Below are positions 2,843 through 57,433 of a stretch of 64,000 nucleotides of DNA, piece by piece (the first letter of the stretch is position 1; every line of letters begins with the position of its first letter). A program made the translations under genes and the position numbers. The stretch is from Candidatus Levyibacteriota bacterium (GTDB lineage Bacteria; Patescibacteriota; Microgenomatia; Levybacterales; UBA12049), in NCBI GenBank assembly GCA_030651475.1, contig JAUSEW010000002.1:19927-83926 (forward strand), read 5' to 3'. The notes beneath the pieces are model-generated. The model was not told where the DNA came from. It ran no database searches and worked only from the letters and a program-made list of their open reading frames with translations.

Positions 2843-3649
2843 ATGAACAAAAGTTTGCAAGAACTAAGACAAAGCTTCGTCAGGTTCTTTCTCAAGGCGG
2901 AAAAAGCAAAATTTACAGATAGGGAAGGACTAACTTTGGTTACAGTTGAGTCTCAAACGAAAGGATTAGGGATTGCAAAACAAATATTATATTTGTTAAC
3001 GGAGAAAAACCCAAATACCGTGCTCTTCCTTTCCGGAGGAAAAACGCCGGAAGATTTATACAGGCAGATTACCGAAGAAGCAAGGCTAAAAGTCGAAGCC
3101 GTTGCGATGGTGGATGAACGATTTGGACCCCGTCTGCATAACAACAGCAATGAAAGAATGATTGGGGAAACAGGATTTTGGTCGTATCTTGAAAAGAAGA
3201 AAATTTCGTTCTATTCAATCTTACGATTACACCCCAAGGGTGTAGCCTCAGACTTTGTGAGAGATTATGATAGAAAGGTTAAATATCTTCTAGGGCATTT
3301 TTCAAAAAAGATCGCAGTTTTGGGCATTGGAAAAGACGGTCATACGGCAGGAATAGCTCCCAACAGAAAAGATTTTATTAATCCTCTTTTTTCGAAATCT
3401 TTATTGGTTGGGTCATTTAAGGATCATAGGAGTATGGATGAGGGAGGTTTTGGGACAAGAATAACCTTAACCTTTGAAGCATTAAGGAAAATGGATATAT
3501 TATTGGTGTTGGCTTTTGGAGAAGAAAAAAAAGAGGCTCTTAGAAAAATGTTCAATAGGGGATCATTGGAGGAAATTCCAGCAAGATTTTATACGTCGGA
3601 ACCGCAAATTGTTCAAAGAACTATTTTAATTACGGATCAGAAAGTATAA
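2843..3649 (+). CDS. pgl: 6-phosphogluconolactonase
   Basis: LFLSGGKTP and GIGKDGHTAGIAP motifs of the NagB/Pgl family. Located immediately upstream of zwf. Contains an in-frame palindromic insertion at 3227-3250. Confidence 0.75.
   Translation: MNKSLQELRQSFVRFFLKAEKAKFTDREGLTLVTVESQTKGLGIAKQILYLLTEKNPNTVLFLSGGKTPEDLYRQITEEARLKVEAVAMVDERFGPRLHNNSNERMIGETGFWSYLEKKKISFYSILRLHPKGVASDFVRDYDRKVKYLLGHFSKKIAVLGIGKDGHTAGIAPNRKDFINPLFSKSLLVGSFKDHRSMDEGGFGTRITLTFEALRKMDILLVLAFGEEKKEALRKMFNRGSLEEIPARFYTSEPQIVQRTILITDQKV
3227..3250. repeat. GC-rich palindromic element (family 2) inserted in frame in pgl
   Basis: TTACACCCCAAGGGTGTAGCCTCA. A near-identical copy lies at 57405-57429 in intergenic DNA. Confidence 0.7.
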
Positions 3650-3658
3650 TATAGTTAT

Positions 3659-5122
3659 ATGCAGAGTTCTTTTGTAATGGTTATTTTTGGTGCAACCGGT
3701 GATTTGGCGCAAAACAAACTTATCCCCTCGCTTTTTTCTCTTTTCAAACAAAAACAACTACCAACAGACTTTTTTATAGTAGGTTTTTCAAGAAGAGAAC
3801 TTAGCGACAGCGATTTTGGATCATATTTCAAAGCTCTTCAAGATAAAGAAGGATGGAATGAGTTTGCCAAACATTTATCTTACCAAAAAGGAAGCTTTGA
3901 TGACATAAGCGGATATTCAGAGCTTATAGATAAACTTAAAAAACTTGACGACAAAATCGGCGCGTGCGTAACTCGCTTTTTTTACCTTGCCACTCCTCCG
4001 GATCATTATCAAAATATTCTTAAGTTTTTGCGGGAAACTAAACTATCGGAGGGGTGCGGTCCCCACTTCGCCCCGCTAAGCGGGGCTTCGAGGAGCAAGC
4101 AAGAGAGTAAGTGGACAAGGATAATTATTGAGAAACCTTTCGGTAAGGATCTAGAGACTGCAAAAGCATTGGATATGAAGCTTTCCGAAGTCTTTGAGGA
4201 GAAACAAATTTTTAGGGTGGATCATTACTTGGGTAAAGAAACAATGCAAAATATTATTGCTTTTAGATTTGCCAATGGAATTTTTGAGCCGGTTTGGAAT
4301 AAAAATTTTATAGACCATGTGCAAATTACTTGGGCGGAGGAACAAGGTGTAAAAGAAAGGGGAAATTTTTTTGACGGAGTAGGATTACTTCGGGATGTCG
4401 GACAAAATCATTTGATGCAGCTTGTTACGGCAGTTGCTATGGAAAGCCCGAAGAGTTTTTCCAAAGAAGGAGTCAGAGATGCAAGAGCAGAGGTTATTAA
4501 AAAAATCCGTTGCGTAGAATCAAGTGAAGTTTCGAAAAATATAGTTAGGGGTCAATATGAAAATTATAGATCGGAAAAAAATGTAGCGAAAAATTCCAAT
4601 ACGGAAACATTCGTTGCTATGAAAATTTTTGTTGATACGGATCGGATGGCAGGCGTGCCTTTTTATATAAGAATGGGTAAAAAAATGCCCAAAAATTTAG
4701 TTGAAATATCTGTTGTTTTTATACAGACTTGCCACATTTTGTTTAAAGAATATGGCTGTCCTGAAATAGGAAATGTTTTGGTGTTTAGAATTCAGCCGGA
4801 TGAAGGAATTAATCTTCGCGTCATCGCAAAAAAGCCCGGCGCCAAGCTTTCTCTAGGAACCGTTAATATGAATTTTTCCTACGAAGATCAATTTAGGACA
4901 AATGGAGCAGATGCGTACGAGAAAGTGCTTCTTGATATTTTTGCAGGCGATCAAATGCTTTTCAATAGATCGGATGAGTTGGAAAGTTCATGGGAATTTA
5001 TAACAAAAATTTTGAAAGGATGGGCTAATTTAGGGGTTGAACCCCTAAAGTATAAGGCGGGAACTTGGGGACCGGAAGAGGCGGAGGCGCTAATCGAAAA
5101 AGACGGGAGGAAGTGGATATAA
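3659..5122 (+). CDS. zwf: glucose-6-phosphate 1-dehydrogenase
   Basis: IFGATGDLA NADP motif, IIEKPFG and RVDHYLGKE active-site motifs. Confidence 0.9.
   Translation: MQSSFVMVIFGATGDLAQNKLIPSLFSLFKQKQLPTDFFIVGFSRRELSDSDFGSYFKALQDKEGWNEFAKHLSYQKGSFDDISGYSELIDKLKKLDDKIGACVTRFFYLATPPDHYQNILKFLRETKLSEGCGPHFAPLSGASRSKQESKWTRIIIEKPFGKDLETAKALDMKLSEVFEEKQIFRVDHYLGKETMQNIIAFRFANGIFEPVWNKNFIDHVQITWAEEQGVKERGNFFDGVGLLRDVGQNHLMQLVTAVAMESPKSFSKEGVRDARAEVIKKIRCVESSEVSKNIVRGQYENYRSEKNVAKNSNTETFVAMKIFVDTDRMAGVPFYIRMGKKMPKNLVEISVVFIQTCHILFKEYGCPEIGNVLVFRIQPDEGINLRVIAKKPGAKLSLGTVNMNFSYEDQFRTNGADAYEKVLLDIFAGDQMLFNRSDELESSWEFITKILKGWANLGVEPLKYKAGTWGPEEAEALIEKDGRKWI
4049..4094. repeat. GC-rich hairpin element inserted in frame in zwf
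   Basis: ~46-bp GC-rich segment in an AT-rich gene with internal stem GCCCCGC-TAA-GCGGGGC. Encodes ~15 extra residues (GCGPHFAPLSGASRS) just before the conserved IIEKPFG. Confidence 0.6.
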
Positions 5123-10354: not shown

Positions 10355-11620
10355 ATGAGATATTCGAAATTATTTGGGAAGACGATTAAGAATGCGCCAA
10401 GTGATGAAGTCGCGGTTAATGCCAAACTCTTAACGAAAGCGGGATTTATTAGAAAAGAAATAGCAGGCGTTTACAATTTCTTACCCCTTGGCTTAAGAGT
10501 GCTTAACAAAATTTCAAACATCGTCCGTGAAGAAATGAATGCGATAGGAGGTCAGGAGTTGGAGCTTACTACTTTGCAAAATAAACAATCATGGGAGAAA
10601 ACAGGAAGATGGAGTTCTTTTGATGTGCTTTTTAAAGCAAAAAGCCAGCTTGATATAGAATACCCTTTAGGTCCTACTCATGAAGAGGTAATCGTGCCTT
10701 TAGCAAAGCAGTTTGTAAATTCCTACAAAGATTTGCCTCTTTACGTTTACCAAATTCAAACGAAATTTAGGGACGAAAAGAGAGCCCAAAGCGGACTTTT
10801 ACGAGGAAGAGAATTTTTAATGAAGGATTTATATTCGTTCCATACGGATGAAAAGGACTTTGAGAAATATTACGAAATCGCGAAAAAAGCCTACAAGAAA
10901 CTTTTCCAAAGATTAGGACTTGACGCCATAGAAACGCAGGCAGGAGGAGGAACTTTCAGCAAATTTTCCCATGAATATCAAGTGGTTGCAGAAGCAGGAG
11001 AAGATGAGATTATCTATTGTCCCGCCTTCGCCAAGGCTTCGGTGGGCAAGCCGGGCTGTCATTTTTCCCAGAATCAAGAGATAGCAGGGGTAAAAGAAAA
11101 TGAATCATGTCCGATTTGTCAGAAAAAACTCGCCAAAGCCAAAGCGATTGAGGTTGGTAATATTTTTCCCTTGAAGACTAAATTTTCGGAAACTTTTGGG
11201 CTTACGTATAAGGGTAAAGACGGCAAAGAAAATCCTGTTGTGATGGGCTGTTATGGCATTGGCATATCAAGATTAATGGGGACGATTGCTGAAGTTTATA
11301 ATGATGAGAAGGGGATTATTTGGCCGAAAAGTGTGGCGCCATATCAAGTGCACTTGATAATGATTAATGATAAAGGATTAAGGATTAAGAAAAGAGCGGA
11401 TGAGGTTTACGAGAAGCTGCAAAAAGCCGGAATTGAAGTTTTGTATGATGACAGAGAAGATGTTTCCGCAGGAGGGAAATTTGCAGACGCGGATTTAATT
11501 GGAATTCCGGTCAGACTTGTTGTTTCAGAAAAGACTGGGGATAAGATAGAGTGGAAGAAAAGAAGCGAAGAAAAAACAGAATTCTTAAGTGAAGAAGAAC
11601 TAATTAGACGCCTAGTTTAA
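10355..11620 (+). CDS. proS: prolyl-tRNA synthetase (bacterial type lacking INS editing domain)
   Basis: Close N-terminal match to E. coli ProRS (GPTHEEVI, YQIQTKFRDE, REFLMKD). Only 421 aa. Confidence 0.9.
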   Translation: MRYSKLFGKTIKNAPSDEVAVNAKLLTKAGFIRKEIAGVYNFLPLGLRVLNKISNIVREEMNAIGGQELELTTLQNKQSWEKTGRWSSFDVLFKAKSQLDIEYPLGPTHEEVIVPLAKQFVNSYKDLPLYVYQIQTKFRDEKRAQSGLLRGREFLMKDLYSFHTDEKDFEKYYEIAKKAYKKLFQRLGLDAIETQAGGGTFSKFSHEYQVVAEAGEDEIIYCPAFAKASVGKPGCHFSQNQEIAGVKENESCPICQKKLAKAKAIEVGNIFPLKTKFSETFGLTYKGKDGKENPVVMGCYGIGISRLMGTIAEVYNDEKGIIWPKSVAPYQVHLIMINDKGLRIKKRADEVYEKLQKAGIEVLYDDREDVSAGGKFADADLIGIPVRLVVSEKTGDKIEWKKRSEEKTEFLSEEELIRRLV

Positions 11621-16491: not shown

Positions 16492-16539
16492 ACGCCTTAA
16501 TCCTTATTGATAAGCGCATTTTACAATAGTAGAATAGGG

Positions 16540-16570
16540 TTATGACCCTTCGACTTCGCTCAGGGTCATA
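16540..16570. repeat. palindromic element (family 1) in prs 5' region
   Basis: TTATGACCCTTCGACTTCGCTCAGGGTCATA lies after a TTGATA-17-TAGAAT promoter. Confidence 0.7.
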
Positions 16571-16586
16571 GTGAGGTATTCGAACT

Positions 16587-17507
16587 ATGAAGATATTTAG
16601 CGGAACTTCCAATGAGCCTTTGGCTAAGAAAATCGCGGAAGGCTTAAGACTTACCTTGTCTCCTTTGGAAATCCACGTTTTCCCTGACGGCGAAAAAAGA
16701 ATAAGGGTATTGGATGAAGTTGTGGAAGAAAATTGCATAGTTATCCAAAGCACATCTCCAAACGTTAATGAGAATTACATCGAGCTTTTCTTTATCGTGG
16801 ACGCTTTGAAGCGAAGCGGAGCAAAGTCTGTGATAGCGGTTATTCCGTATCTTGGTTATCAAAGGCAGGATCATGTATTTCGAGAAGGAGAGGCAGTTTC
16901 CATAGAGGTGATGATAAAAACTTTACAGGCGTCCGGAGTAGATAAAATTATAACTTTTGATCTTCATTCCATAAAAATTCCAGAGTTTTTCGCAATTCCC
17001 ATAGCTCATTTATCTGCTTTGCCGCTTTTTGCCGAAAAAATAAGGGTGATATCGGAAGAAGGCGCGTTATCAGGAGCATCACCAATTCTAATCTCTCCGG
17101 ATATGGGAGGAATAAGAAGGATAAAATTGCTTTCGGAGCTTTTGGGAGATATGCCGTATGCGAGCATAGAAAAGGATAGGAATTTAAAAACAGGAGAAAT
17201 TAAAATCAAAAATATTCATGTAGCGCCGAACATCAATCTCAAAGGACGTTTCGCCTTTATCGTGGATGACATGATTGCAAGCGGGGGAACTATAGACAAA
17301 GCAGTAAATTTCCTAAAGAAAAAAGGACTAGCGAAGGTTTGGATTTTCGCAACACATGCGATTTTTGCCGAAAATGCGAAATTGATTTTGAAAAAGATAA
17401 AAGCAGAAAAAATATACGTTACCAACAGCGTTTTTATCCCTAAAGAAAAACAATTTCCCAAGCTCCAGATCCTTTCAATCGCCAGAATAGTAATTGAGAA
17501 TTTATGA
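16587..17507 (+). CDS. prs: ribose-phosphate pyrophosphokinase
   Basis: PRPP synthetase N-terminal domain and DDMIASGGT PRPP-binding motif. Confidence 0.9.
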   Translation: MKIFSGTSNEPLAKKIAEGLRLTLSPLEIHVFPDGEKRIRVLDEVVEENCIVIQSTSPNVNENYIELFFIVDALKRSGAKSVIAVIPYLGYQRQDHVFREGEAVSIEVMIKTLQASGVDKIITFDLHSIKIPEFFAIPIAHLSALPLFAEKIRVISEEGALSGASPILISPDMGGIRRIKLLSELLGDMPYASIEKDRNLKTGEIKIKNIHVAPNINLKGRFAFIVDDMIASGGTIDKAVNFLKKKGLAKVWIFATHAIFAENAKLILKKIKAEKIYVTNSVFIPKEKQFPKLQILSIARIVIENL

Positions 17508-18999: not shown

Positions 19000-19155
19000 A
19001 GGCTTGCTTTATATCATATTGCTTTCAGTTTGTCAAAAAAATGAGAGCTTGGATTAGTTTTTGGCAACTTCCTTTGCTCTTTCGTTCAAATGCCCCAGAT
19101 AAAAAATCGTAGACATTCGTAGGTATTATTACATATTGTTGATATTGACAAGTCA

Positions 19156-19179
19156 CTTTAATAATATATATTATTAAAG
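19156..19179. promoter_or_regulatory. 24-bp perfect AT palindrome overlapping the -10 region and abutting the start codon of the TrpR-like gene
   Basis: CTTTAATAATATATATTATTAAAG, with TTGACA at 19145-19150. ATG at 19181, so the transcript is leaderless. Confidence 0.6.
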
Positions 19180-19180
19180 T

Positions 19181-19624
19181 ATGACACAGATTTCTAAATA
19201 CCCTGTTCATAAAAAAGTTGAAGAGAGAATGTTTGAGGTTCTTCGAGAAACAATCTCTCATCTAAATAACGCAGAAGACATAGAAGATTTTCTAACCGAT
19301 TTCCTTTCTCCTGTTGAAAAGATTATGTTGGCAAAACGGCTTTCTATTGCCATTCTCTTGCATAAGGGATATAAATATGGAACTATAGCGGAAATATTAA
19401 GGGTTACGCCTCCAACAATTGCGACAGTCAGCTTATTGCTTAGATATTCCGGTAAGGGTTACAGAAAGGCTGTAGGGAAAATAGCGGCAAACGAAAAAAT
19501 GAATCTATTTTGGGAAAAAGTGGAGGATATGCTATCTAAAATACCTAATTCAAAAGGGAGCGATTGGGTATATCAGAAGAGAGAATACGAGAGAAAGAAA
19601 AGCGTCCGCAAAAAAGCTTTTTAG
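19181..19624 (+). CDS. TrpR-like DNA-binding protein (YerC/YecD family)
   Basis: LSPVEKIMLAKRLSIAILL and GYKYGTIAEILRVTPPTIATVS helix-turn-helix. Confidence 0.7.
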   Translation: MTQISKYPVHKKVEERMFEVLRETISHLNNAEDIEDFLTDFLSPVEKIMLAKRLSIAILLHKGYKYGTIAEILRVTPPTIATVSLLLRYSGKGYRKAVGKIAANEKMNLFWEKVEDMLSKIPNSKGSDWVYQKREYERKKSVRKKAF

Positions 19625-19632
19625 AATACTCA

Positions 19633-19656
19633 CTTAAATAATATATATTATTTAAG
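19633..19656. promoter_or_regulatory. second 24-bp AT palindrome, near-identical to 19156-19179
   Basis: CTTAAATAATATATATTATTTAAG, upstream of ORF 19741. Confidence 0.55.
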
Positions 19657-19740
19657 TATTTGAGACGTTGGAGTTTTTGAAATGATTAGGGTAGAATCTA
19701 AAATAGAGGATAATTGGGATTATAGGGTTTGGTTTTATTT

Positions 19741-20291: not shown

Positions 20292-21707
20292 ATGTTGAAA
20301 ATCTATAATACGCTAACAAAAAAGGTTGAGGAGTTTAAGCCGATTAATTCTCCAAAGGTTAATATCTATTCCTGCGGTCCCACGGTTTATGATTACCAAC
20401 ACATAGGGCATATGAGAAGGTATGTGGGTGATGATATTTTGATTAGGGTTTTGGATTTCAATAACTTCAGGGTTAAGCACGTAATGAATATTACGGATGT
20501 CGGACATTTGGTTTCGGATGCGGATACAGGCGAGGATAAGATGGAAAAGGGTGCCCGAAAGTTTAATAAGACTGTTTGGGAGATTGCGAAAATGTTTGAA
20601 GAGCAGTTTTTTGCATCCGCGAAAGCTTTGAATATCAAAAAACCGGATCTGGTGATGCATGCAACAGATTACATTAAAGAGCAAATTGTTTTTATTCAGG
20701 CGCTTGAAAAGAAAGGATATACGTATAAAATAGATGACGGGATTTATTTCGATACTTCGAAATTCTCAAACTACAACAAGCTTTCCGGTCAAAACCTTAA
20801 GGATATGAAAGCGGGCGCAAGAGTAGAGATGGTTAAAGGCAAAAAACATCCGTCAGATTTCGCTCTCTGGAAATTTAGCCCCAACCCTTCGACAAGCTCA
20901 GGGCAACCTAAAAGGTTGATGGAGTGGGAAAGCCCTTTTGGTATTGGATTTCCCGGTTGGCATATTGAGTGTTCAACTATGGCGATAAAGGGTTTGGAAA
21001 CCGAGACTTTGGATATTCATACAGGAGGAATTGATCATATTGCCATTCATCATACCAATGAAATTGTTCAAAGCGAGGCCGCAACAGGAAAAACGTTTGT
21101 TAAATACTGGATGCATCATAATTTTCTGCTGGTTGACGGGCAAAAAATGAGCAAAAGCCTGGGGAATATTTATACTGTCGAAGATATTATTAAAAAAGCC
21201 ATGCCTGCCGGCAGGCAGGGTTTTGAGCCTCTGGCTCTTCGCTATCTTTATTTGCAAACTCATTATCGGCAGGAAGCAAATTTTACATTTGAGGCTTTGG
21301 AATCGGCGCAAACCGCATTAAACCGCTTAAGGGAGAATATTTCCAATTGGGGAAAACCAAAAGTGGGATGCGCGGAATTTGAAGAAAGATTTTTGCAGGC
21401 GATTAACAATGATTTAAATATGCCGGAAGCGCTTTCTATCGTTTGGGAATTAGTGAAATCCGATTATCCGACATCTGCCAAAGCGGAAAGCTTGTTCAAA
21501 ATGGATCAGGTTCTAGGCCTAAATCTTGGACAAGATCAGAAGCTTGAAGTACCGGAAGAGATAATGAAAATGGTCAAAGAACGAGAAGAGCTAAGGAAGA
21601 TTCAGAGTTACCATCTGGCAGATCAAATGAGAGGCAGAATTAAGAAATTGGGCTACAATGTTTTGGACACGGAAAAAGGCTCTCTGGTAAAAAAGATTGG
21701 AAAATAG
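20292..21707 (+). CDS. cysS: cysteinyl-tRNA synthetase
   Basis: CGPTVYDYQHIGH (HIGH) and KMSKSLGN motifs. Carries an in-frame palindromic insertion. Confidence 0.9.
   Translation: MLKIYNTLTKKVEEFKPINSPKVNIYSCGPTVYDYQHIGHMRRYVGDDILIRVLDFNNFRVKHVMNITDVGHLVSDADTGEDKMEKGARKFNKTVWEIAKMFEEQFFASAKALNIKKPDLVMHATDYIKEQIVFIQALEKKGYTYKIDDGIYFDTSKFSNYNKLSGQNLKDMKAGARVEMVKGKKHPSDFALWKFSPNPSTSSGQPKRLMEWESPFGIGFPGWHIECSTMAIKGLETETLDIHTGGIDHIAIHHTNEIVQSEAATGKTFVKYWMHHNFLLVDGQKMSKSLGNIYTVEDIIKKAMPAGRQGFEPLALRYLYLQTHYRQEANFTFEALESAQTALNRLRENISNWGKPKVGCAEFEERFLQAINNDLNMPEALSIVWELVKSDYPTSAKAESLFKMDQVLGLNLGQDQKLEVPEEIMKMVKEREELRKIQSYHLADQMRGRIKKLGYNVLDTEKGSLVKKIGK
20882..20907. repeat. palindromic element (family 1) inserted in frame in cysS
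   Basis: AACCCTTCGACAAGCTCAGGGCAA encodes PSTSSGQ between the conserved ALWKF and WESPFG segments. Confidence 0.7.
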
Positions 21708-21744: not shown

Positions 21745-22503
21745 ATGGCTGAACCAAGAACCGAGACGACACAACCAATAGCTACAATAGAAATTAAGAA
21801 GGGCTTAAGTAGATTGGCAATTAATCCTCATGGTGCAAGAATTGAAGAGTTAACGTTAAAAGGGCAGAAGATTCTTACTAAAGTAAGAAGAGCGGATCTT
21901 ACCCAAGCATCCACCCATCCGTGTATTCCTATTTTTGGTCCCGAAACCACGACTAGATTTGGTATTCCGCAGCATGGATCTGCAAGAAAAAAAGATTTTG
22001 ACGTTTCTATAGTAGAAGGACATATTATTTTATCTCAAGAAATTGTAGACGGTCAATATCCCAAAGGATTAAGCATAAGACAGGTTCATAGTCTTTCGGA
22101 AGAAGAATATTCCTTAACAACAATTGTTTCAAATAGCTCTACAGAAGCACTTCCCGTTAATTTCGCAGAACATTTTTATTGGGATACTCCTGGCGGGTGG
22201 GGTGGTTTGATCATTAACGGCAAAGATGTTGAAGACATCGTGAGAAGAGATGGGGCAATCCCTGCACTAAAAGGAAAAAATGTGATTCATATACCATTGA
22301 GGAGGGAGATAATTTTAGACGCAAAAGGATTTTCTATTCTTCAGCTGTGGACAGGCAAAAATCCAGAAGGTAAATTTGATCAACATTATGTTTGCATAGA
22401 ACCAGCAGAGGGTAATCCTGCAGAGAATTTTTTTGGCTCCAAAGATTCAATGATAAAACCCCAACAATCGAGAACTACAGAAATTAAGATTAGCTTACAA
22501 TGA
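21745..22503 (+). CDS. aldose 1-epimerase family protein
   Basis: INPHGARIEELTLKG and mutarotase-like fold motifs. Confidence 0.65.
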   Translation: MAEPRTETTQPIATIEIKKGLSRLAINPHGARIEELTLKGQKILTKVRRADLTQASTHPCIPIFGPETTTRFGIPQHGSARKKDFDVSIVEGHIILSQEIVDGQYPKGLSIRQVHSLSEEEYSLTTIVSNSSTEALPVNFAEHFYWDTPGGWGGLIINGKDVEDIVRRDGAIPALKGKNVIHIPLRREIILDAKGFSILQLWTGKNPEGKFDQHYVCIEPAEGNPAENFFGSKDSMIKPQQSRTTEIKISLQ

Positions 22504-23267
22504 ATACTTCTTGGCAGAAAGTTTCCGGATGGTATAAAAATTTGGTCAAGGAAAAGGGGCATTATTTTCACGAGCATTTGGTTATCCCAAGATCATTAGC
22601 GCTTCTTTCGTTGGATAGTGAGAGCAGCCTGCCTACCGGCGAGGCAAGTCTTTTGGATTTGGGATGCGGAGAAGGGGTTTTGGCAAGGGCAATCCCTAAA
22701 AATATTTATTATCAAGGGGTTGATATTGCGACCTCTTTGATAGATTATGCTAAAAAAAACGACCATAATCCGTTGCATAAATATGCGGTTGGCAATGTCG
22801 CTAGACCTCTTCCGATATCCAAGAAAGATTTTACTCATGCAGTTTTTATTCTCGCTCTGCAAAATATTTCCGAACCTTTTTTGGCGTTGCAAAATGCTGC
22901 TTCCTATCTCAAAAAAGGCGGAAAACTGCTGATAGTTCTGAACCATCCATATTTCCGAATTCCCAGGCAAACGTCCTGGGGGATTGATGAAAAAAATAAA
23001 ACCCAGTACCGAAGAATCGACCGCTACCTAACGCCTCTTAAAATTCCGATAAATATGCATCCGGGAGAAAAGGAATCTTCAGTAACTTGGTCTTTCCATT
23101 TTTCTCTTTCTGCTTACAGTAAATTTCTTTTTGATTCAGGTTTGGTAATAGAGAAAATAGAGGAGTGGACTTCGGATAAAATAAGCGTTGGCAAAGCGGC
23201 AAAAATGGAAAATAGAAGCCGGGAAGAATTCCCTCTTTTCATGGCAATCCTCGCAAAACTTGGATAA
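22500..23267 (+). CDS. class I SAM-dependent methyltransferase
   Basis: LLDLGCGEGVL motif I. Confidence 0.7.
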   Translation: MNTSWQKVSGWYKNLVKEKGHYFHEHLVIPRSLALLSLDSESSLPTGEASLLDLGCGEGVLARAIPKNIYYQGVDIATSLIDYAKKNDHNPLHKYAVGNVARPLPISKKDFTHAVFILALQNISEPFLALQNAASYLKKGGKLLIVLNHPYFRIPRQTSWGIDEKNKTQYRRIDRYLTPLKIPINMHPGEKESSVTWSFHFSLSAYSKFLFDSGLVIEKIEEWTSDKISVGKAAKMENRSREEFPLFMAILAKLG

Positions 23268-25676: not shown

Positions 25677-26456
25677 GTGAGATTGGAAAATAAAGTTGCG
25701 ATTGTTACAGGCGGGGGAAGCGGAATCGGGCAGGCGATAGCTATTCTGTTCGCCAAAGAAGGCGCCAAAGTCGTTGCTGCCGGCAGAAGGATTGAGGCTT
25801 TGCAAAGTACAGTAGCGGAAATTGTCCGCCAAAGGCGGATCAGCCTAGGGCTGAAAAAATCAGGCGGTGAAGCTCTAGCAGTAACAGCAGACGTTTCTTC
25901 TTTTTCTTCAATACAAAATCTTATCCAAAAAACTCTGGAAAAATTTGGCAGAATTGATATTCTGGTCAACAATGCTGGCATTTATTTAGCCGGCGACGCA
26001 GTATCGACAACCGAAGAAGATTGGGATAAAGTTCTGGCAATTGACGCCAAAGGAACATTTTTGTGTTCCAAAGCAGCTCTTCCATCGATGATAAAACAGG
26101 GAAAAGGGAAAATCGTCAATACAGCTTCTATAGCCGGATGGATAGGTTTCGAAGAAAGCATAGCTTACTGTGCGGCAAAAGGCGCGGTTGTTAATATGAC
26201 TAGGGAGATGGCTTTGGATTTCGGACCAAAAAATATCAATGTCAATGCAATTGCGCCCGGTGTCGTAGAAACGGATATGACCCAAAGTTTTTTGCAGGAT
26301 GAAAACGCCAAAAAATCCTTTTTGGATAAAATCCCAATAGGAAGAATTGGAAAACCTTTGGATATTGCTTATGCGGCCTTGTATTTGGCATCGGATGAAT
26401 CGGATTTTGTTACTGGAGAAACGCTGATAGTTGACGGCGGATGGACAGCCAGATAA
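25677..26456 (+). CDS. SDR family oxidoreductase (FabG-like)
   Basis: TGGGSGIG NAD(P) motif, NNAG and catalytic YxxxK (YCAAK). Confidence 0.85.
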   Translation: MRLENKVAIVTGGGSGIGQAIAILFAKEGAKVVAAGRRIEALQSTVAEIVRQRRISLGLKKSGGEALAVTADVSSFSSIQNLIQKTLEKFGRIDILVNNAGIYLAGDAVSTTEEDWDKVLAIDAKGTFLCSKAALPSMIKQGKGKIVNTASIAGWIGFEESIAYCAAKGAVVNMTREMALDFGPKNINVNAIAPGVVETDMTQSFLQDENAKKSFLDKIPIGRIGKPLDIAYAALYLASDESDFVTGETLIVDGGWTAR

Positions 26457-27323: not shown

Positions 27324-28109
27324 ATGACAATGCGACACATTGAAAGCAAAGAAGGATTAGGAGAATTCGTTGGGGATCCCAATGGCGATAAAGCCAAATT
27401 AGCAATAACTCTCATAGAGGGCGCAAGAAAATGGAGGGAGACATTTGGAGATATTTCTTTGCCATCTGTTACAGCTTCAGTTGAAGTAAAACCATTTTCT
27501 CCAGAAGCAGTTACTAATTATTGGCGAACAAAATTACAAGCAGATGGTAAAAGAATAGGACTTTCTATTTCCGTGCCAGATTGTAGTTGGACAGAAGCAG
27601 AAATAAGAAAGCCAATGGTAGATGTTAAAGGAAACGAAGTTCCTTCAATGTTAGTTTATGTTCCGCAAGAGCTTATGGGAAAAGAAGGATTAGTAAGATT
27701 AGGACAGATGTATCCAAAGATGAATAACTGGTCTGTTCAAGAAGACACTAGCGTGCAAAATAGTCCTGATGCAAACAAAAAAGGCGGATGGGTTAAAGTA
27801 GAAGCAATTGTTGATGCCCCAAATCTTAATACTACTCAGGAAGATCTTGAACAGCATGCCAAAGATAAAAAATATTTCGCACAAACATTAAATACTTTTA
27901 TTCTTGCTTCTCAAGCAAATAAAGATTTAACAGGACGTTACTTAGATGAAGGATCGACATGGTCTCGTTTGCTTGGTTCTCGTCGCGCGAGCGGTGTGGT
28001 TCATGCCGACTTCGGTTCGGGTGGGTACTTGTTTGTCGGTTGGGGTCTGGGTCCGCAGGGTCACGGTTCGGGCATAGGCGGGCGTTTTGAAGAAGTGAAG
28101 AAAGCTTAA
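27324..28109 (+). CDS. DGR variable (target) protein, C-terminal CLec/FGE-like variable region
   Basis: C-terminus carries the VR (..GSTWSRLLGSRRASGVVHADFGSGGYLFVGWGLGPQGHGSGIGGRF..). Confidence 0.8.
   Translation: MTMRHIESKEGLGEFVGDPNGDKAKLAITLIEGARKWRETFGDISLPSVTASVEVKPFSPEAVTNYWRTKLQADGKRIGLSISVPDCSWTEAEIRKPMVDVKGNEVPSMLVYVPQELMGKEGLVRLGQMYPKMNNWSVQEDTSVQNSPDANKKGGWVKVEAIVDAPNLNTTQEDLEQHAKDKKYFAQTLNTFILASQANKDLTGRYLDEGSTWSRLLGSRRASGVVHADFGSGGYLFVGWGLGPQGHGSGIGGRFEEVKKA
27971..28097 (+). repeat. DGR variable repeat (VR)
   Basis: 127 bp aligned to the TR without gaps. 26 of 28 mismatches are at TR adenines. Confidence 0.85.
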
Positions 28110-28430
28110 ACCTTTGCCTCTTTGTCCTTTTAGCTCCTTTGACTTTCGTTTTTTTATAGTCCTCCCAAACTATTTTATGCTACAATACTCCTGAGAGTAG
28201 GTTAATACATTCTTAAGCTAAGACTTTAGAATTACCGAAATCCTTGATTTTCAAAATTTTGTTCGATTTCTGTTGTTTATGGATAACAGAAGAATACAAA
28301 AGAAAAACAAGACACTTCTTGCCTAATGCTTGCGAAGATGTCCTGAGCTTGTCGAAGGACTACTTCCAAATAAAATACAACAGTAAGAGTAATCAAACTG
28401 TGGTGGTAATTGATGGCATAAGGCAAAAAA

Positions 28431-28557
28431 GCTTGGTTCTCGTAACGAGAGCAATGTGGTTAATGCCAACTTCAATTCGGATGGTAACTTGAATGTCAAT
28501 TGGAATCTGAATCCGCAGAATCACAATTCGAACATAGGCGGGCGTTTTGGAGAAGTA
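28431..28557 (+). repeat. DGR template repeat (TR)
   Basis: AAY-codon-rich (Asn) copy: ..NVVNANFNSDGNLNVNWNLNPQNHNSNIGGRF.. Confidence 0.85.
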
Positions 28558-28564
28558 GCTTGTT

Positions 28565-28861
28565 TTAAATTTGAGTTAATGATCTTTTCCATCCTCCAAG
28601 CATCCTGCCAACTTCTTGGAGGAATTGTTCTAACTGTAGATATTTATTATTGTCAAGAGATTGAACATCTTTAGCCAGTCTGAGCAATATCTTTAAAAGA
28701 TCTAATGAGATGATAGCTTTTTCAAGATAAAGAAGCTTTTTGTCTTTCTGACTTGTTCCTGCCATAAGGATTAGTTCGAAAATTGTAAGCGTTAGACTAT
28801 CCAGCTTTTGTCCTAAAGTGTAGCGGTCTTTTTTGGGGAAAAGCTTCAGGTATCCATACAA
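28565..28861 (-). CDS. avd: accessory variability determinant (Avd), four-helix-bundle family
   Basis: C-terminal EVGRMLGGWKRS matches Bordetella phage Avd EVGRILGSWIAR, and FPKKDRYTLGQKL is the helix-2 signature. TTG start. The frame stays open upstream through the (AC)n tract. Confidence 0.75.
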   Translation of the reverse strand: MYGYLKLFPKKDRYTLGQKLDSLTLTIFELILMAGTSQKDKKLLYLEKAIISLDLLKILLRLAKDVQSLDNNKYLQLEQFLQEVGRMLGGWKRSLTQI

Positions 28862-28911
28862 TAATTTGTAGAAATCATAGAATCTTTGAATAAGAGGTAT
28901 GTCAAAGTCAG

Positions 28912-28932
28912 GTGTGTGTGTGTGTGTGTGTG
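28912..28932. repeat. (GT)10 dinucleotide microsatellite between divergent avd and RT
   Basis: GTGTGTGTGTGTGTGTGTGTG. Confidence 0.9.
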
Positions 28933-28947
28933 AATATCTTTATCTGT

Positions 28948-30012
28948 ATGCATATTGATACATTCGACGGTGCCGAGCACCGCTCAGTATCAACCCTGAG
29001 CGAAGTCGAACGGGTTGATTATTCCAAGCTTATCTCAATAGAAAATTTATTTCAAGCATGGAAAGAGTTTAGAAAAGGAAAAGCTAAGCGTTTTGATGTT
29101 GCGGAATTTGAAAGGAATTTAGAAGATAATTTATTTGAATTACATTTAAAATTGAAAAATAAAAGTTATAAACATGGAGGTTACGAATCATTTTATGTTC
29201 ACGACCCAAAACAGCGGCATATTCATAAAGCAAGTGTTATAGATAGGGTAGTTCATCATCTGCTTTACACCTTTTTGTATAAGTTGTTTGACAGAGTATT
29301 TATTTATGATTCCTATTCCTGCAGACTTAATAAAGGAACCCATAAAGGAGTAAAGAGATTAGCGGAACTTACAAGAAAAGTTTCTAAAAACTATACAAGA
29401 CCTTGTTTTGCTTTAAAATTAGATATTAAAAAGTTTTTTGCCAGCGTTGACCATGAAGTTTTACTTACCTTACTTAAGAAAAAGGTTAAAGATAAAGATA
29501 TTATTTGGTTGTTAGTACAGATAATCAATAGTTTTTACTCGGATAAAGGAGAAGGGAAAGGAATGCCTCTTGGCAATTTAACCAGTCAGGTTTTTGCCAA
29601 TATTTACCTCAATGAACTTGACCAGTTTACAAAACATAAGTTAAAAGTAAAATATTATCTTCGTTATGCAGATGATTTTCTGTTTTTATCAAAGAATAAA
29701 GAGTTATTGTGTAAATATATTGACGTATTAAGACAATTCCTGAGCAACGGACTTAAACTTGAACTTCATCCTAATAAGATTATCTTTCGTAAATTAGAAT
29801 GGGGAATTGATTTCTTAGGCTACATAGTTTTACCTCATTATATTTTGCCAAGGACAAAAACTAGAAAAAGGATTTTTAAAAAATTAAAGGAAAATGTTGG
29901 TTCAGAAAACTTTAATCAATCCTTGCAATCCTATTTAGGATATTTAGGGCATGCCAGCAGTTTTAAAATAGCCCAATCTCTACTTTACTTTTACCAAAAA
30001 TATAGCTTATGA
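28948..30012 (+). CDS. DGR reverse transcriptase
   Basis: N-terminus ENLFQAWKEFRKGK resembles Brt. GNLTSQVFANIYLNELD carries the DGR SQ motif. RYADDFLFL is the YxDD motif. Start could instead be GTG 28912. Confidence 0.85.
   Translation: MHIDTFDGAEHRSVSTLSEVERVDYSKLISIENLFQAWKEFRKGKAKRFDVAEFERNLEDNLFELHLKLKNKSYKHGGYESFYVHDPKQRHIHKASVIDRVVHHLLYTFLYKLFDRVFIYDSYSCRLNKGTHKGVKRLAELTRKVSKNYTRPCFALKLDIKKFFASVDHEVLLTLLKKKVKDKDIIWLLVQIINSFYSDKGEGKGMPLGNLTSQVFANIYLNELDQFTKHKLKVKYYLRYADDFLFLSKNKELLCKYIDVLRQFLSNGLKLELHPNKIIFRKLEWGIDFLGYIVLPHYILPRTKTRKRIFKKLKENVGSENFNQSLQSYLGYLGHASSFKIAQSLLYFYQKYSL
28990..29018. repeat. palindromic element (family 1, inverted orientation) within the RT 5' region
   Basis: TCAACCCTGAGCGAAGTCGAACGGGTTGA. 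Confidence 0.65.
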
Positions 30013-31316: not shown

Positions 31317-31420
31317 TAACTCGCATTGGGTTTTCCTATTGAGATAAAAAGTTCATAATTCTTTTAAGTGTGTTTTTTTGGCTATTGACAAAGTTATAGC
31401 TTTGTTATAACATGGTTATA

Positions 31421-31441
31421 ACCCTTCGATAAACTCAGGGT
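31421..31441. repeat. palindromic element (family 1) between promoter and antitoxin start
   Basis: ACCCTTCGATAAACTCAGGGT, preceded by TTGACA-17-TAACAT. Confidence 0.65.
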
Positions 31442-31447
31442 AAATAT

Positions 31448-31690
31448 ATGGAACAAACAGTAATGCAAGTTGGCAATTCTTTAGCAGTCACTTTACCCAA
31501 GCAATTTGTTGACGCTAAAAAAATAAAAGCAGGACAAAAAATGCTTGTGGATGCAGACAATGATCTCTCTGTGGTTCAAATAAGAACAAAGAATTCTAAA
31601 GCCTCCAAGATTACTCCCGAATTTAAGAACTGGCTTGACGCATTCAATACCCGCTACAAGACAGCGCTTACTGAGCTTGCAAAAAAGTGA
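31448..31690 (+). CDS. AbrB/MazE-family antitoxin
   Basis: VGNSLAVTLPK swapped-hairpin motif. Overlaps doc by 4 nt. Confidence 0.7.
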   Translation: MEQTVMQVGNSLAVTLPKQFVDAKKIKAGQKMLVDADNDLSVVQIRTKNSKASKITPEFKNWLDAFNTRYKTALTELAKK

Positions 31691-32079
31691 GACAGACTAA
31701 GCACCTTATCCTCGACGAAGTAATTGCGATACACGATAGCATGATCGAACAGTATGGAGGAAGTTTCGGAATTCGCGATATTGGACTACTTCAGTCAGCG
31801 ATTAGCAGGCCGCAGGCATCATTTGGGGGCGTTGATCTTTATCCAACTATATTTGATAAGGCTGCCGCTCTTTTTCATTCATTGATGTTCAACCATGCTT
31901 TCATGGATGGAAACAAGAGGACAACCATGACAACAACTGCCAGATTCCTTGCAATAAATGGTTACTTGGTTGTAGTAGAACAAAGAGAATTTGTAGATTT
32001 TCCTCTTCGAGTGGAGAATAAACACCTCTCTCTTGGGGAAATCGTCGCTTGGCTGAAGAAACATACAAAGAAGATGTAA
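31687..32079 (+). CDS. doc: Doc toxin (Fic-fold kinase)
   Basis: HAFMDGNKRT Doc motif, 130 aa. Confidence 0.8.
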   Translation: MRQTKHLILDEVIAIHDSMIEQYGGSFGIRDIGLLQSAISRPQASFGGVDLYPTIFDKAAALFHSLMFNHAFMDGNKRTTMTTTARFLAINGYLVVVEQREFVDFPLRVENKHLSLGEIVAWLKKHTKKM

Positions 32080-32092
32080 TTTGGGAGAGATA

Positions 32093-43220: not shown

Positions 43221-44318
43221 ATGAATTTGTCGGTTGGGATAGTTGGGCTGCCGAATGTGGGGAAGAGTACGCTGTTTAATGCGCTTCTAAAAAAGCAGGC
43301 GGCATTTGTGGCAAATTATCCTTTCGCCACAATTGAGCCAAATGTCGGAGTTGTTCCTGTGCCGGATTCAAGACTTCAAAAGTTAGCAGAAATTACCAAG
43401 GAAGAAGAAAAAATGTCCGCGTTTCCTCCGATAAAACCAGCTATTGTAAATTTTGTGGACATTGCCGGACTTGTTAAGGGTGCCAGTGAGGGAGCGGGTT
43501 TGGGAAATAAATTTTTGTCTCACATCAGAGAGGTTTCGATAATTGCTCATGTTGTCCGCGCGTTTGAGGATTCAGATATTATTCGTGAAGGTTCTATGGA
43601 CCCCAAAAGCGATTACGAAACTATAAATACAGAGCTGATGCTGGCTGATTTGCAAACAGTTAAGCAGGCCCAAGGCAGGGCTAGGAAGTTTCAGAAGCAG
43701 TCGGAAAAAGACGCAATTGATAAATTGTATAAAGGTTTGGATAGCGGAAAACCCGCAAGGGAAATAGAGCTGACGGATGAAGAGCGGGAATTCGCAAATA
43801 CCTTTTTTCTGCTTTCTGCAAAACCGGAACTTATTGTCTTGAATGTTTCGGAACAAACGCTGAAAGACGCGGACAAGATAATTCAGAACTACGCGGAATT
43901 GTTGGGAATTAGTAAGGAAAAGTTTGTTGTCATATCTGCCAAAATCGAAGCGGAGCTGGCAGAACTTTCCGAGGAAGAACAGAAAATATATCTTGCGGAT
44001 TTGGGCTTACAAACTTCAGGTTTGGAACGACTTATCAAAAAAGCCTACGAAACTCTTGGTTTAATCTCGTTTTTAACTTGCGGGGAAAAAGAGGTAAGGG
44101 CATGGACCATTCGGCTCGGTTCAACCTCGCTCATGGCCTCCGGCACTATACACACTGATTTCATGAAAAACTTTATCAAGGCAGAGATTGTTTCATTTAA
44201 AGATTTTGTAAGTTTGAATGGTTGGAAAAAAGCCAGAGAACAAGGGCGCGCAAGATCCGAAGGCCGGGATTATATAATGCAGGATGGGGAAGTGGTGGAA
44301 TTTAAGATTGGACAATAG
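43221..44318 (+). CDS. ychF: ribosome-binding ATPase YchF
   Basis: GIVGLPNVGKSTLFNAL G1 motif and C-terminal TGS domain. Confidence 0.9.
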   Translation: MNLSVGIVGLPNVGKSTLFNALLKKQAAFVANYPFATIEPNVGVVPVPDSRLQKLAEITKEEEKMSAFPPIKPAIVNFVDIAGLVKGASEGAGLGNKFLSHIREVSIIAHVVRAFEDSDIIREGSMDPKSDYETINTELMLADLQTVKQAQGRARKFQKQSEKDAIDKLYKGLDSGKPAREIELTDEEREFANTFFLLSAKPELIVLNVSEQTLKDADKIIQNYAELLGISKEKFVVISAKIEAELAELSEEEQKIYLADLGLQTSGLERLIKKAYETLGLISFLTCGEKEVRAWTIRLGSTSLMASGTIHTDFMKNFIKAEIVSFKDFVSLNGWKKAREQGRARSEGRDYIMQDGEVVEFKIGQ

Positions 44319-52992: not shown

Positions 52993-54135
52993 TTATAATT
53001 CAATAAGTTCTCTTGAGCAACGGGTTAAGAAGCGGGGACCGGATTTTCCTAGGACTACCAAATCTTCAATTCTTACCCCTCCAAATCCGGGAATGTAGAT
53101 CCCCGGTTCTATAGAGAAAACCATATTTTCTTTTAAAATATCTTTCGAAAGGGGAGAAAGGCGAGGAGATTCATGTACCTCAAGGCCAATGCCGTGGCCA
53201 AGAGAATGAGGAATTGTCGGGAATCCTTTCGTAGTAATATAATCTCTGGCGATTTTATCAATTTCGGATGCCTTTATTGCTAATTGCTTCATTGTTAAAT
53301 TGTTTAATTGCTGAATTGCTTTTTGCTGGGCTTCTAGAACCGTTTGGTACATCTTTTTAAATTCTGCATTTGCAGAACCAAAGAAAACGGTTCTTGTCAT
53401 ATCGGAACAATAATTATTCAGTTTCACGCCAAAATCCAGCAATACGATTTGGTCTTTAGCCGTTAGTCTTTGGTCGCTAGCTTGATGGTGGGGGACAGAA
53501 GAATTTTTTCCAAAGGCAACGATAGGAGGAAAAGATATATTAGCCCCCTGTTTTTTGATAAAAAATTCTATTTCAAGGGCAATTTCTTTTTCACTTATTC
53601 CTTCTTTTATTTTCTTTAAAACATATTCAAAAGCTTTGTCTCCCAATTCGCATGCTTTTTCAATTTTAGAAATCTCATCAGGCGTTTTAACGCTTCGTAG
53701 ATTCGAAATACTTAAATGATATATATTATTAAAGTATTTTGACAGCCTTTTGTGTTCTAGAAAACTAATATTGTGACCTTCGAATCCTAATCGTTTTATG
53801 TTATTTTTTTGTGTAAGATTTTTTATTGCTTCTCCAAAAGAAAGTTTTGAAGAAATTTCAATAAGTTCAAAATCTTTGACTTGTTTTTTAACGGCTTCAG
53901 AATATCGCCCATCGGTAAGAATATACCCCAAAACCCCAGGGGTTCCGTGCGTCAACCCCTGGGGTTGAGCCACGATTAAAAGGAAAGCTTCCCGTTCATC
54001 CTTGGAGAAATTGGAAAATCCTGTTAGGTAAGTAATGTTAGGAACGGAGGAAATGAGTAGTCCGTCAATGTTCTTATTTAGCATTAAACTTTTTAAATTT
54101 AAGAGACGATTATTCATAAATTTAACATGTTTCAT
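52993..54135 (-). CDS. pepP: Xaa-Pro aminopeptidase (M24B)
   Basis: HGLGHGIGLEVHE and pita-bread fold motifs. In-frame palindromic insertion near the N-terminus. Confidence 0.85.
   Translation of the reverse strand: MKHVKFMNNRLLNLKSLMLNKNIDGLLISSVPNITYLTGFSNFSKDEREAFLLIVAQPQGLTHGTPGVLGYILTDGRYSEAVKKQVKDFELIEISSKLSFGEAIKNLTQKNNIKRLGFEGHNISFLEHKRLSKYFNNIYHLSISNLRSVKTPDEISKIEKACELGDKAFEYVLKKIKEGISEKEIALEIEFFIKKQGANISFPPIVAFGKNSSVPHHQASDQRLTAKDQIVLLDFGVKLNNYCSDMTRTVFFGSANAEFKKMYQTVLEAQQKAIQQLNNLTMKQLAIKASEIDKIARDYITTKGFPTIPHSLGHGIGLEVHESPRLSPLSKDILKENMVFSIEPGIYIPGFGGVRIEDLVVLGKSGPRFLTRCSRELIEL
53932..53966. repeat. duplicated 13-bp GC palindrome inserted in frame in pepP
   Basis: AACCCCAGGGGTT-ccgtgcgtc-AACCCCTGGGGTT encodes ..QPQGLTHGTPGVLG.. 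Confidence 0.65.
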
Positions 54136-57404: not shown

Positions 57405-57429
57405 TTTACACCCCAAGGGTGTAGCCTCA
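57405..57429. repeat. GC-rich palindromic element (family 2), intergenic copy
   Basis: TTTACACCCCAAGGGTGTAGCCTCA lies between convergent dnaB and the hydrolase gene. Confidence 0.7.
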
Positions 57430-57433
57430 AACT

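Follow-up and report, generated by a model that had tools for sequence, protein, structure and literature searches.

A short hairpin element, probably REP/REPIN-like, in genes and leaders of a Candidatus Levybacteria genome

Several classes of short palindromic repeats have been described in bacteria. Repetitive extragenic palindromic (REP) sequences, REP doublets forming hairpins (REPINs) and the REP-associated tyrosine transposases (RAYTs) have been treated in detail (Nunvar et al. 2010, PMC2817692; Bertels & Rainey 2011, PMC3116915; Di Nocera et al. 2013, PMC3733652), and small REPs within genes are documented in several species (PMC3733652). Rickettsia palindromic elements (RPEs; Ogata et al. 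2000, summarised in PMC10969869) are about 150 bp long, carry a conserved 30-50-residue peptide and are confined to Rickettsia. The insertion sequences IS608 and ISDra2 recognise a target of four or five nucleotides by base pairing with an internal guide and integrate 3' of it; for ISDra2 this target is TTGAT (PMC5934647, PMC8612924). In this study, we analysed a 64-kb stretch of a Candidatus Levybacteria genome (the window; contig JAUSEW010000002.1; 38% GC, from a genome of roughly 1 Mb) and a hairpin element in it, family 1, that a sequence-only reading of the same DNA had singled out, noting that one copy lies in frame inside cysS, the gene for cysteinyl-tRNA synthetase (CysRS). We put at roughly 60% the probability that family 1 is a selfish hairpin of the REP/REPIN kind, folding as single-stranded DNA and surviving within genes only where an in-frame insertion is tolerated. 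On this reading it represents, in this genome, one branch of a class of miniature non-coding hairpins that is very widely distributed.

Copies in the window and at orthologous sites

The window holds six copies of family 1 and one variant with a 13-nucleotide (nt) mini-hairpin in its loop. A unit is 22-30 bp long when single and 45-60 bp as an inverted doublet, and it folds into a stem of 3-9 bp around a conserved, non-palindromic loop of 13-14 nt; the stems vary from copy to copy, and the loop is nearly invariant. Bits and E-values below are those of a covariance model trained on 87 instances, all from other organisms.

16541-16570 (-): copy 1, 5' leader of prs; 32.1 bits, E = 1.6e-6; fold -16.9 kcal/mol, z = -2.5
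16564-16592 (+): copy 6, degenerate inverted partner of copy 1; 16.6 bits, E = 0.03
20880-20908 (-): copy 2, inside cysS (20292-21707); 35.9 bits, E = 1.3e-7; ortholog DNA and protein alignments
28336-28364 (+): copy 5, between the variable repeat and the template repeat of a diversity-generating retroelement (DGR); 31.3 bits, E = 2.7e-6; alignment with the relative L247
28955-28993 (-): variant copy, left half of the doublet in the DGR reverse transcriptase (RT) gene; sequence and fold, model weak (E = 4.4)
28989-29019 (+): copy 3, right half of the RT doublet; 17.7 bits, E = 0.016; fold z = -2.2
31417-31445 (-): copy 4, between a promoter-like site and the start (31448) of a mazE-like antitoxin gene; 20.0 bits, E = 0.004

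Three of these units lie in intergenic leaders (the prs pair and the mazE copy), one in the non-coding DGR spacer and three within genes. The pattern CCTTCGA-N2-10-CTCAGG matches the window four times where 0.02 matches are expected from dinucleotide shuffles, and none of 100 shuffles reached four; one of the four matches is the previously overlooked copy 5 (28342-28358). The covariance model returned the six copies as its six best hits in the window (E = 1e-7, 2e-6, 3e-6, 4e-3, 0.016 and 0.03) and gave five hits in 66 kb of relatives' DNA. A further candidate at 44102-44141 (E = 0.49) was rejected: it lies within the C-terminal domain of YchF and is colinear with the Pfam profile, 83 residues to 83 positions. 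The four copies of the sequence-only reading were all located (16545-16566, 20884-20903, 28993-29016 in inverted orientation, and 31421-31441), and its count has to be raised to six, as it had missed copies 5 and 6 and the variant. Its description of the element as palindromic applies to the stem and not to the loop.

Close relatives, at about 74-88% DNA identity to the window, differ from it by presence or absence of family 1 at three sites (cysS, prs and RT) and by replacement of the hairpin tip at a fourth (copy 5). The CysRS of the window is identical to a protein that NCBI assigns to a Candidatus Levybacteria metagenome-assembled genome. For cysS, the protein was aligned to 25 homologs and its DNA to that of L002, L003 and L004, the closest three orthologs (88%, 85% and 85% nucleotide identity). 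An in-frame insertion had been proposed here, and the ortholog alignment bears this out: 18 nt at 20885-20902, CCCTTCGACAAGCTCAGG, are in frame and absent from L002, and they encode part of a PNPSTSSGQP loop (the copy itself reads NPSTSSGQ). At this site the window reads AGC CCC AAC CCT TCG ACA AGC TCA GGG CAA CCT AAA and L002, 18 nt shorter, AGT CCT AAG GAT TCC AAA (SPKDSK); at the protein level PKDS-KR in L002 faces PNPSTSSGQPKR in the window. L003 has a decayed copy, TTCGGCAAGCGCAGGAC, and L004 a perfect 16-nt palindrome, TCCGCCAGCTGGCGGA, that is unlike family 1. The cysS copy is identical in L001, a Logan assembly made independently from the same sample.

The loop is also informative beyond these relatives. 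Among the 120 closest CysRS homologs, short loops (PKDS, PKNS or PKGE) are the commonest class, with 43 members, while 16 homologs have loops like P[ST][AT]SSG, 42 have ...FD[LS]A[KQ]D... and 6 have TPGVSS. By the DNA of representatives, the class of 16 is family 1 with an AA-type loop read in frame A, and the class of 42 is family 1 with a TNC-type loop read in frame B; the codons are CCT TCG ACA AGT TCA GGA in L246 and TCC TTC GAC TCC GCT CAG GAT in L245. These frame-A and frame-B copies belong to other Microgenomates. Since the same motif occurs in the same CysRS loop in two reading frames and with two loop types, the loop has been hit at least twice independently. The peptides of relatives thus come with the nucleotide signature, intact in L246 (CCTTCGACAAGTTCAGGA) and L245 (CCTTCGACTCCGCTCAGGA) and decayed in L003. 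The sequence-only reading would have been refuted by relatives that share the peptide and lack the signature, and these sequences do not refute it.

The cysS gene of this genome has a second insertion, of 21 nt, at 21198-21218. It contains a perfect palindrome, CCTGCCGGCAGG, adds AMPAGRQ in frame before GFEPLALRYL, is found in this genome only and is absent in all 25 aligned homologs. L002 has a 42-nt GC-rich palindromic in-frame cysS insert of its own, ARPPASSLAGEVGR, at its positions 4693-4734, and other CysRS orthologs carry GC-rich palindromic in-frame inserts elsewhere in the protein (24 residues in P0053; PPAG before GFPGWH in P0018 and P0032). The family-1 insertion may lie in a surface loop. 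Solved CysRS homologs (3sp1 and 8qhp) are gapped at the insertion, and both cysS inserts of the window align to gaps, whereas the AlphaFold model of CysRS (mean pLDDT 63, with both inserts as coil at pLDDT below 50) is too poor to judge surface exposure.

In the prs leader, pairwise alignment with L002 reveals a 45-nt insertion at 16541-16585, the doublet of copies 1 and 6, which L002 lacks. L002 reads TAGAAT-AGGGT-TATGAAG upstream of prs, and the 45 nt of the window sit between AGGGT and TATGAAG, bounded by a direct repeat TATGA (16541-16545 and 16586-16590) that is single in L002. A promoter-like TTGATA-17-TAGAAT lies at 16507-16535, and the insertion begins 6 nt past its -10-like element. 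In L002 (positions 60-100 of its sequence) the start codon follows 6 nt after the -10-like TAGAAT, a spacing that suggests that its prs mRNA may be leaderless; in the window, the insertion creates a leader of 50 nt that contains a GAGG and a hairpin. The core of copy 1 (16545-16566) is ACCCTTCGACTTCGCTCAGGGT, its extended stem TATGACCC/GGGTCATA, and its loop, TTCGACTTCGCTCA on the plus strand, is a GNA-type loop on the folded minus strand. Copy 6, with stem CATAG/CTATG and loop TGAGGTATTCGAA, has the arm TCATA in common with copy 1 and extends over the start codon of prs (ATG at 16587).

Copy 4 lies downstream of a promoter-like TTGACA-17-TAACAT at 31385-31413 and has a stem ACCC/GGGT and a loop, TTCGATAAACTCA, with two substitutions. 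The genes at 31385-32079 form a pair of a MazE-like antitoxin and a Fic/Doc toxin (Pfam MazE and Fic/Doc), and three GTTATAAC-like repeats overlap the promoter-like site, as for an autoregulated operator.

The remaining units belong to a complete DGR at 27324-30012, with the following parts:

27324-28109: DGR target gene, with the variable repeat at 27971-28096
28431-28556: template repeat, 79% identical to the variable repeat
28565-28861 (-): bAvd gene
28948-30012: DGR reverse transcriptase

The RT gene has a 60-nt insertion at 28960-29019, 20 codons in frame (TFDGAEHRSVSTLSEVERVD) after codon 4 (MHID). It is an inverted doublet of the variant and copy 3, is clean in the DNA alignment with L247, which has the empty site, and is bounded by a direct repeat TTGAT (28955-28959 and 29015-29019) that is single in L247. 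Most of 120 RT orthologs have 5-7 residues ahead of a conserved ...LISIENL motif, and several begin MHIDYSNLISIENL. Copy 3 has the stem ATCAACCC/GGGTTGAT with one C bulged and is oriented opposite to the adjoining variant, which reads TTGATAC-A-TTCGAC[GGTGCCGAGCACC]GCTCA-GTATCAA. The 13-nt mini-hairpin GGTGCCGAGCACC splits the family-1 loop of this variant, and its assignment to family 1 rests on context. Copy 5 has the stem GTCC/GGAC and an outer stem that covaries with that of L247 (GAAG/CTTC in the window, GGAG/CTCC in L247). It is enclosed by a match to the RT-16 RNA (28267-28432) that precedes the template repeat and, at 32 bits, stays below the gathering score of 50; the RT-16 consensus lacks the family-1 motif. 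A (GT)n run of about 20 nt just 5' of the RT start (28911-28931; about 5965-5990 in L247) is conserved in orthologous Levybacteria DGRs and reads VCVCVCV in over-extended RT gene calls. The effects of family 1 on the host, namely the hairpin and GAGG at prs and the extra surface residues in CysRS and RT, are probably neutral by-products.

The two resolved doublets share a layout. Their central arm (TCATA in prs, ATCAA in RT) is complementary to the 5-nt sequence on both sides, such that two alternative hairpins share this arm, and the 5-nt direct repeats TATGA and TTGAT are single at the empty sites (n = 2). A doublet in L004 (2945-2996) has a matching layout with GTCA/TGAC. Flanking direct repeats around the doublets of other phyla did not rise above the null. 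An early idea that the stem extensions are inverted copies of the target was weakened, as ATGACCC/GGGTCAT recurs in L004 as an element-intrinsic stem.

The hairpin in other genomes

The sequence-only reading had held such a family to be unexpected in this lineage, a view that has to be given up, since the same loop occurs in many phyla, including other groups of the candidate phyla radiation (CPR). A scan of viral contigs with CCTTCGAC-N2-4-GCTCAGG and a scan of one genome per species with ACCCTTCGAC-N2-3-GCTCAGGG each gave at least 120 matches. Among the matches listed, the gap in the loop is mostly AA or AG and otherwise T-N-C with all four N; AA and AG make up 2 of the 336 gap options by chance in the viral scan and 2 of 80 in the species genomes. 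CPR hosts among these matches are Saccharibacteria, Parcubacteria, Peregrinibacteria and Curtissbacteria, and other hosts are Flavobacteriia, Actinomycetota, Acidobacteriota, Chloroflexota, Cyanobacteria, Planctomycetota, Nitrospirota and several Proteobacteria. The hosts listed range from 31 to 73% GC and include isolates such as Moraxella caviae. A 33-nt consensus was found in up to 22 places per Sphingobium replicon and also in Moraxella, Sinorhizobium and Comamonas plasmids, mostly outside annotated DNA, and had no match in 5,426 complete E. coli genomes.

The stem is as variable in these genomes as in the window. Among instances found by the loop alone, 71 of 84 have three Watson-Crick closing pairs, which come from 20 different stems, and in the 87-sequence alignment each of the three closing positions pairs in 86-87 rows, using as many as five kinds of base pair. 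Their covariation scores 0.53; shuffled alignments give 0.19, and sliding the partner gives no more than 0.15. After removal of the positions fixed by the search patterns, isolated mismatches on the TTCGAC strand are A.C in 42 cases and G.T in 11 (p = 2e-5), indicating that the opposite strand, TGAGC(YT|GNA)GTCGAA, is the one that folds. The T-N-C gap reads G-N-A on this strand. GNA is a stable triloop, and UGAG/CGAA can form a U:A pair, tandem G.A pairs and a G:C pair; the loop of family 1 may be built in this way. The folding strand has recurrent 5' pentamers, GTTCG, TGTCA and GCCTG.

A crude call of open reading frames (ORFs) in loci with less than 50% GC places 61 instances between genes and 20 within them. 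The transcript of the flanking or host gene would contain the folded strand for 45 instances and the other strand for 35, a bias that is not significant. Inverted doublets are frequent (37 in 2 Mb of other loci). The neighbouring genes are ordinary, and capsid genes lead the Pfam list (half of the loci are viral). A search of Rfam at gathering and E-value thresholds found only a tRNA in the window and no family over the motif in six motif-rich loci. Literature searches with strings of the DNA core and of its three-frame peptides gave nothing relevant, and the only match to the core string in REP papers was a Coxiella REP. Transfer RNA T- and D-loops, 5' segments of 16S rRNA, the hammerhead, the K-turn and attC were considered as origins and rejected for want of a fitting register. 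This one loop, closed by freely covarying stems, is common to many phyla and also to phage contigs and plasmids, yet it has neither an Rfam family nor a hit in the literature searched, which suggests that a minimal repeat is recognised by a conserved system.

How the hairpins may spread

We propose a model in which the unit is an arbitrary stem of at least 3 bp, often 5-9, closing the conserved 13-14-nt loop, 5'-TGAGC(YT or GNA)GTCGAA-3'. Copies would spread within a genome at the DNA level, singly or as 45-60-bp inverted doublets, and land mostly between genes; genic copies would be retained only where an insertion of a multiple of three meets a tolerant loop or terminus, such as the WK...W.SP.G loop of CysRS or the N-terminus of RT. 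The folded form would be single-stranded DNA, and the mover would act in trans, most plausibly as an HUH Y1 transposase of the IS200/IS605 type that is RAYT-like. Judging from three doublets, the central arm may be a guide that matches the target through complementarity to the TATGA or TTGAT flanks. More tentatively, TGAGC(YT|GNA)GTCGAA hairpins from CPR to Actinomycetota, phages and plasmids could possibly be a single cosmopolitan lineage of minimal mobile DNA, in which the loop is kept as the recognition determinant of a conserved mobilising machinery and doublets are self-guided via an arm complementary to the 5-nt target.

A number of observations weigh against a REP/REPIN-like hairpin moved by such an enzyme. 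The transposase did not turn up: phmmer searches of the window with approximate IS200 TnpA and E. coli RAYT queries, a weak test on 64 kb of a roughly 1-Mb genome, found nothing (best E = 0.26), Y1_Tnp was not among the top 25 of 100 Pfam families in 145 genes adjoining instances, and none of 10 genes enclosed by inverted motif pairs encodes it. The GTAG/CGTC tag that defines the described REP super-families is mostly lacking, with GTAG within 20 nt 5' of the loop in 11 of 276 instances and in no window copy. REPs are described as species-specific and do not usually share a loop across phyla. HUH Y1 transposition proceeds without target duplication, and under such a mechanism the 5-nt repeats would have to mean that the target equals the right end of the element. 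The T-L1-T'-L2-T layout was not seen in the doublets of other phyla. Copy 5 adds no length and swaps the tip of a hairpin that L247 shares. Finally, by GC skew the plus strand is leading across the whole window, and the copies are divided 3:3 between the strands.

Other explanations were weighed against the same evidence. The hairpins could be cis-regulatory RNA elements of the host, acting on stability or translation in 5' leaders or as 3' stabilisers and kept because they are useful, with the genic copies accidental. Two sites do lie between a promoter-like -10 and a start codon, the prs insertion turns an apparently leaderless gene (TAGAAT-6 nt-ATG in L002) into one with a hairpin and a GAGG, the arm shared by the alternative prs hairpins could mask the AUG, five neighbours in phage contigs are major capsid genes, and a folded transcript would give a G.U-type asymmetry too. 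We nevertheless consider this unlikely: orientation to flanking or host genes (45 versus 35) has no significant bias, the sense transcripts of prs, cysS and mazE bear the strand that does not fold, close relatives differ in copies at otherwise conserved loci, copies in coding regions occur in two frames, terminator-like T runs were not found at the prs and mazE sites, and Rfam has no match. The role of a DGR part, in which the hairpins serve cDNA priming or homing and copies elsewhere are off-target products, is suggested by three of the seven units lying in the DGR cassette, one of them within the RT-16-like match. It is very improbable, and we reject it, because orthologous DGRs lack the copies: L247 and most of the 120 RT orthologs are without the RT doublet, and L247 has another tip at the position of copy 5. 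The absence of the motif from the RT-16 consensus speaks against it as well, as does its abundance where no DGR is evident, although no search for RT genes was made there.

A further alternative is spread without a dedicated enzyme, through replication errors. Short homologies at the junctions would seed template switching, or gene conversion from one hairpin to another, and the conserved loop would simply be copied along. Such a process fits the identical 5 nt at either junction of both resolved insertions, the central arms as inverted copies of the flanks, the tip replacement in a pre-existing hairpin at copy 5, the perfect 16-nt palindrome that L004 has at the cysS site where relatives have family 1, an outcome expected of quasi-palindrome correction, and the failure to find a transposase in the window, the listed neighbour families or the enclosed genes. 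Left unexplained are a constant 13-14-nt loop across phyla with varying stems and the asymmetric pentamers GTTCG, TGTCA and GCCTG on one strand, and bursts of 22 copies per Sphingobium replicon are more typical of spread driven by an enzyme; we rate the process as improbable. Chance or base composition, with PSTSSGQ as an ordinary ancestral CysRS loop, has in its favour that several relatives have similar peptides. Its probability is negligible, as it is refuted by the shuffle counts (0.02 expected), by the covariance model with E-values down to 1e-7, by gain and loss among orthologs and by the finding that the same motif DNA encodes the relatives' peptides; short CysRS loops, like those of other bacteria, are the commonest (43 of 120) and are present in the closest relative. 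We infer that family 1 is selfish.

If the hairpins do form one cosmopolitan lineage, they would be an unnamed pan-bacterial class of selfish DNA, a self-guided REPIN, that remodels essential proteins in reduced genomes. Remodelling of essential proteins by tiny in-frame palindromes extends beyond Rickettsia, with consequences for the alignment and modelling of CPR proteins and for judging recent genome dynamics in supposedly streamlined organisms. Gene calls in metagenome-assembled genomes are affected too, as the junk peptides PSTSSGQ, FDKLRA and LSLSKG derive from family-1 DNA. The loop, the folded strand, the doublet layout and the 5-nt junction repeat provide a handle for an enzyme search.

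Other palindromes in the window and comparison with described systems

Family 1 is not the only palindromic sequence of this genome. A BLAST survey of insertions and deletions against relatives found window-specific in-frame GC palindromes outside family 1 in cysS, a methyltransferase gene and a short-chain dehydrogenase/reductase (SDR) gene, and palindromic insertions make up most of the indels of at least 9 nt that separate the window from relatives across the aligned stretches. In the methyltransferase gene (22500-23267), a 21-nt GC-rich quasi-palindrome, CCTGCCTACCGGCGAGGCAAG, at 22628-22648 adds SLPTGEA in frame and is absent in three close relatives. At 25825-25854 the SDR gene (25677-26456) carries 30 extra nt in frame, made up of the perfect mini-hairpins TCCGCCaaaGGCGGA and TCAGCCtagGGCTGA; L002 and L003 have a shorter insertion or none, and the TCCGCC/GGCGGA arms of the window insertion recur in the cysS palindrome of L004. 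GC-rich palindromic islands in the G6PD gene (4045-4097) and in a class II aminoacyl-tRNA synthetase gene (11019-11061) may be in-frame insertions too; the Pfam domain matches of both genes exceed the length of the profiles. A strong GC hairpin at 53933-53974, with a 13-bp stem AACCCCAGGGGTT...AACCCCTGGGGTT, falls, by its coordinates, towards the 3' end of a minus-strand ORF for an M24 peptidase (52993-54135).

Three further repeats are of other kinds. The AT-rich perfect palindrome ACTTTAATAATATATATTATTAAAGT, of 26-30 nt, has three copies (19153-19182, 19630-19659 and 53708-53737), two of which bracket a Trp-repressor-like gene (19181-19624) and look like operator sites. A 30-nt direct repeat, TTACACCCCAAGGGTGTAGCCTCAGACTTT, occurs at 3227-3256 and 57406-57435, 54 kb apart and 97% identical. 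The motif ATAAAATTCCCCAAACC(TC) recurs at 32090, 32689, 39586, 41328 and 60201, often close to gene ends.

Comparison with RPEs begins from the Rickettsia-like behaviour claimed by the sequence-only reading. The behaviour is there, as in-frame insertions occur in several genes; family 1 is nevertheless not an RPE, for its units of 22-30 bp and doublets of 45-60 bp are far from about 150 bp. Both systems combine an AT-rich reduced genome, in-frame palindromic insertions in unrelated conserved genes, apparently tolerant surface regions and several coexisting families. Family 1 adds 6-20 residues and its loop is cosmopolitan; the likeness is one of behaviour and not of size. The small dispersed repeats of Nostoc punctiforme, reportedly described by Elhai et al. 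in 2008 as cyanobacterial families of 21-27 nt, are comparable as well. By description they too are too small to encode anything, form hairpins, look mobile and are present or absent at orthologous sites. They are listed as an unexplained class of short repeats (PMC3116915).

The doublets resemble miniature inverted-repeat transposable elements in their inverted terminal motif copies, their apparent 5-bp target duplication (n = 2) and their in-frame fusions. They are far below the typical length of more than 100 bp, however, and single hairpins occur too. Between inverted motif pairs 0.4-3.5 kb apart, the search for an autonomous parent element found only capsid, PIG-L, PMT, YkuD and peptidase U32 genes and no transposase. 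With IS200/IS605 elements family 1 shares the recognition of a hairpin on one strand, and the RT doublet lies 3' of TTGAT, the sequence targeted by ISDra2; IS200/IS605 elements contain a tnpA gene and insert without duplication, whereas here the pentanucleotide also ends the insert. The parallel with ISDra2 in TTGAT and guide, drawn from three doublets, would be a lead and not a finding.

REPs and REPINs remain the closest match. Like them, family 1 consists of GC-rich imperfect palindromes of 20-40 bp that fold as single strands and show compensatory stem changes, and in the wider family they lie mostly between genes; inverted doublets are frequent, G.T pairs fall on one strand, and occasional copies lie within ORFs. 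Family 1 differs in conserving the loop where REPs conserve the head (GT(A/G)G or CGTC), in sharing this loop across phyla where REPs are species-specific, in that no RAYT gene turned up among the listed neighbour families or the enclosed genes, and in doublets whose two junctions each show a 5-nt repeat. In Coxiella burnetii Dugway, the RAYT gene is flanked by a REP, GTAGGTTGGGCTGAGCTTGCGAAGCCCAAC, of the form GTAG-GTTGGGC-TGAGCTTGCGAA-GCCCAAC (PMC2817692, Table 1). Written on the strand that would fold, its loop TGAGCTTGCGAA is one base shorter than the family-1 loop TGAGCTTGTCGAA, and this Coxiella REP is the only link to a characterised system that we found.

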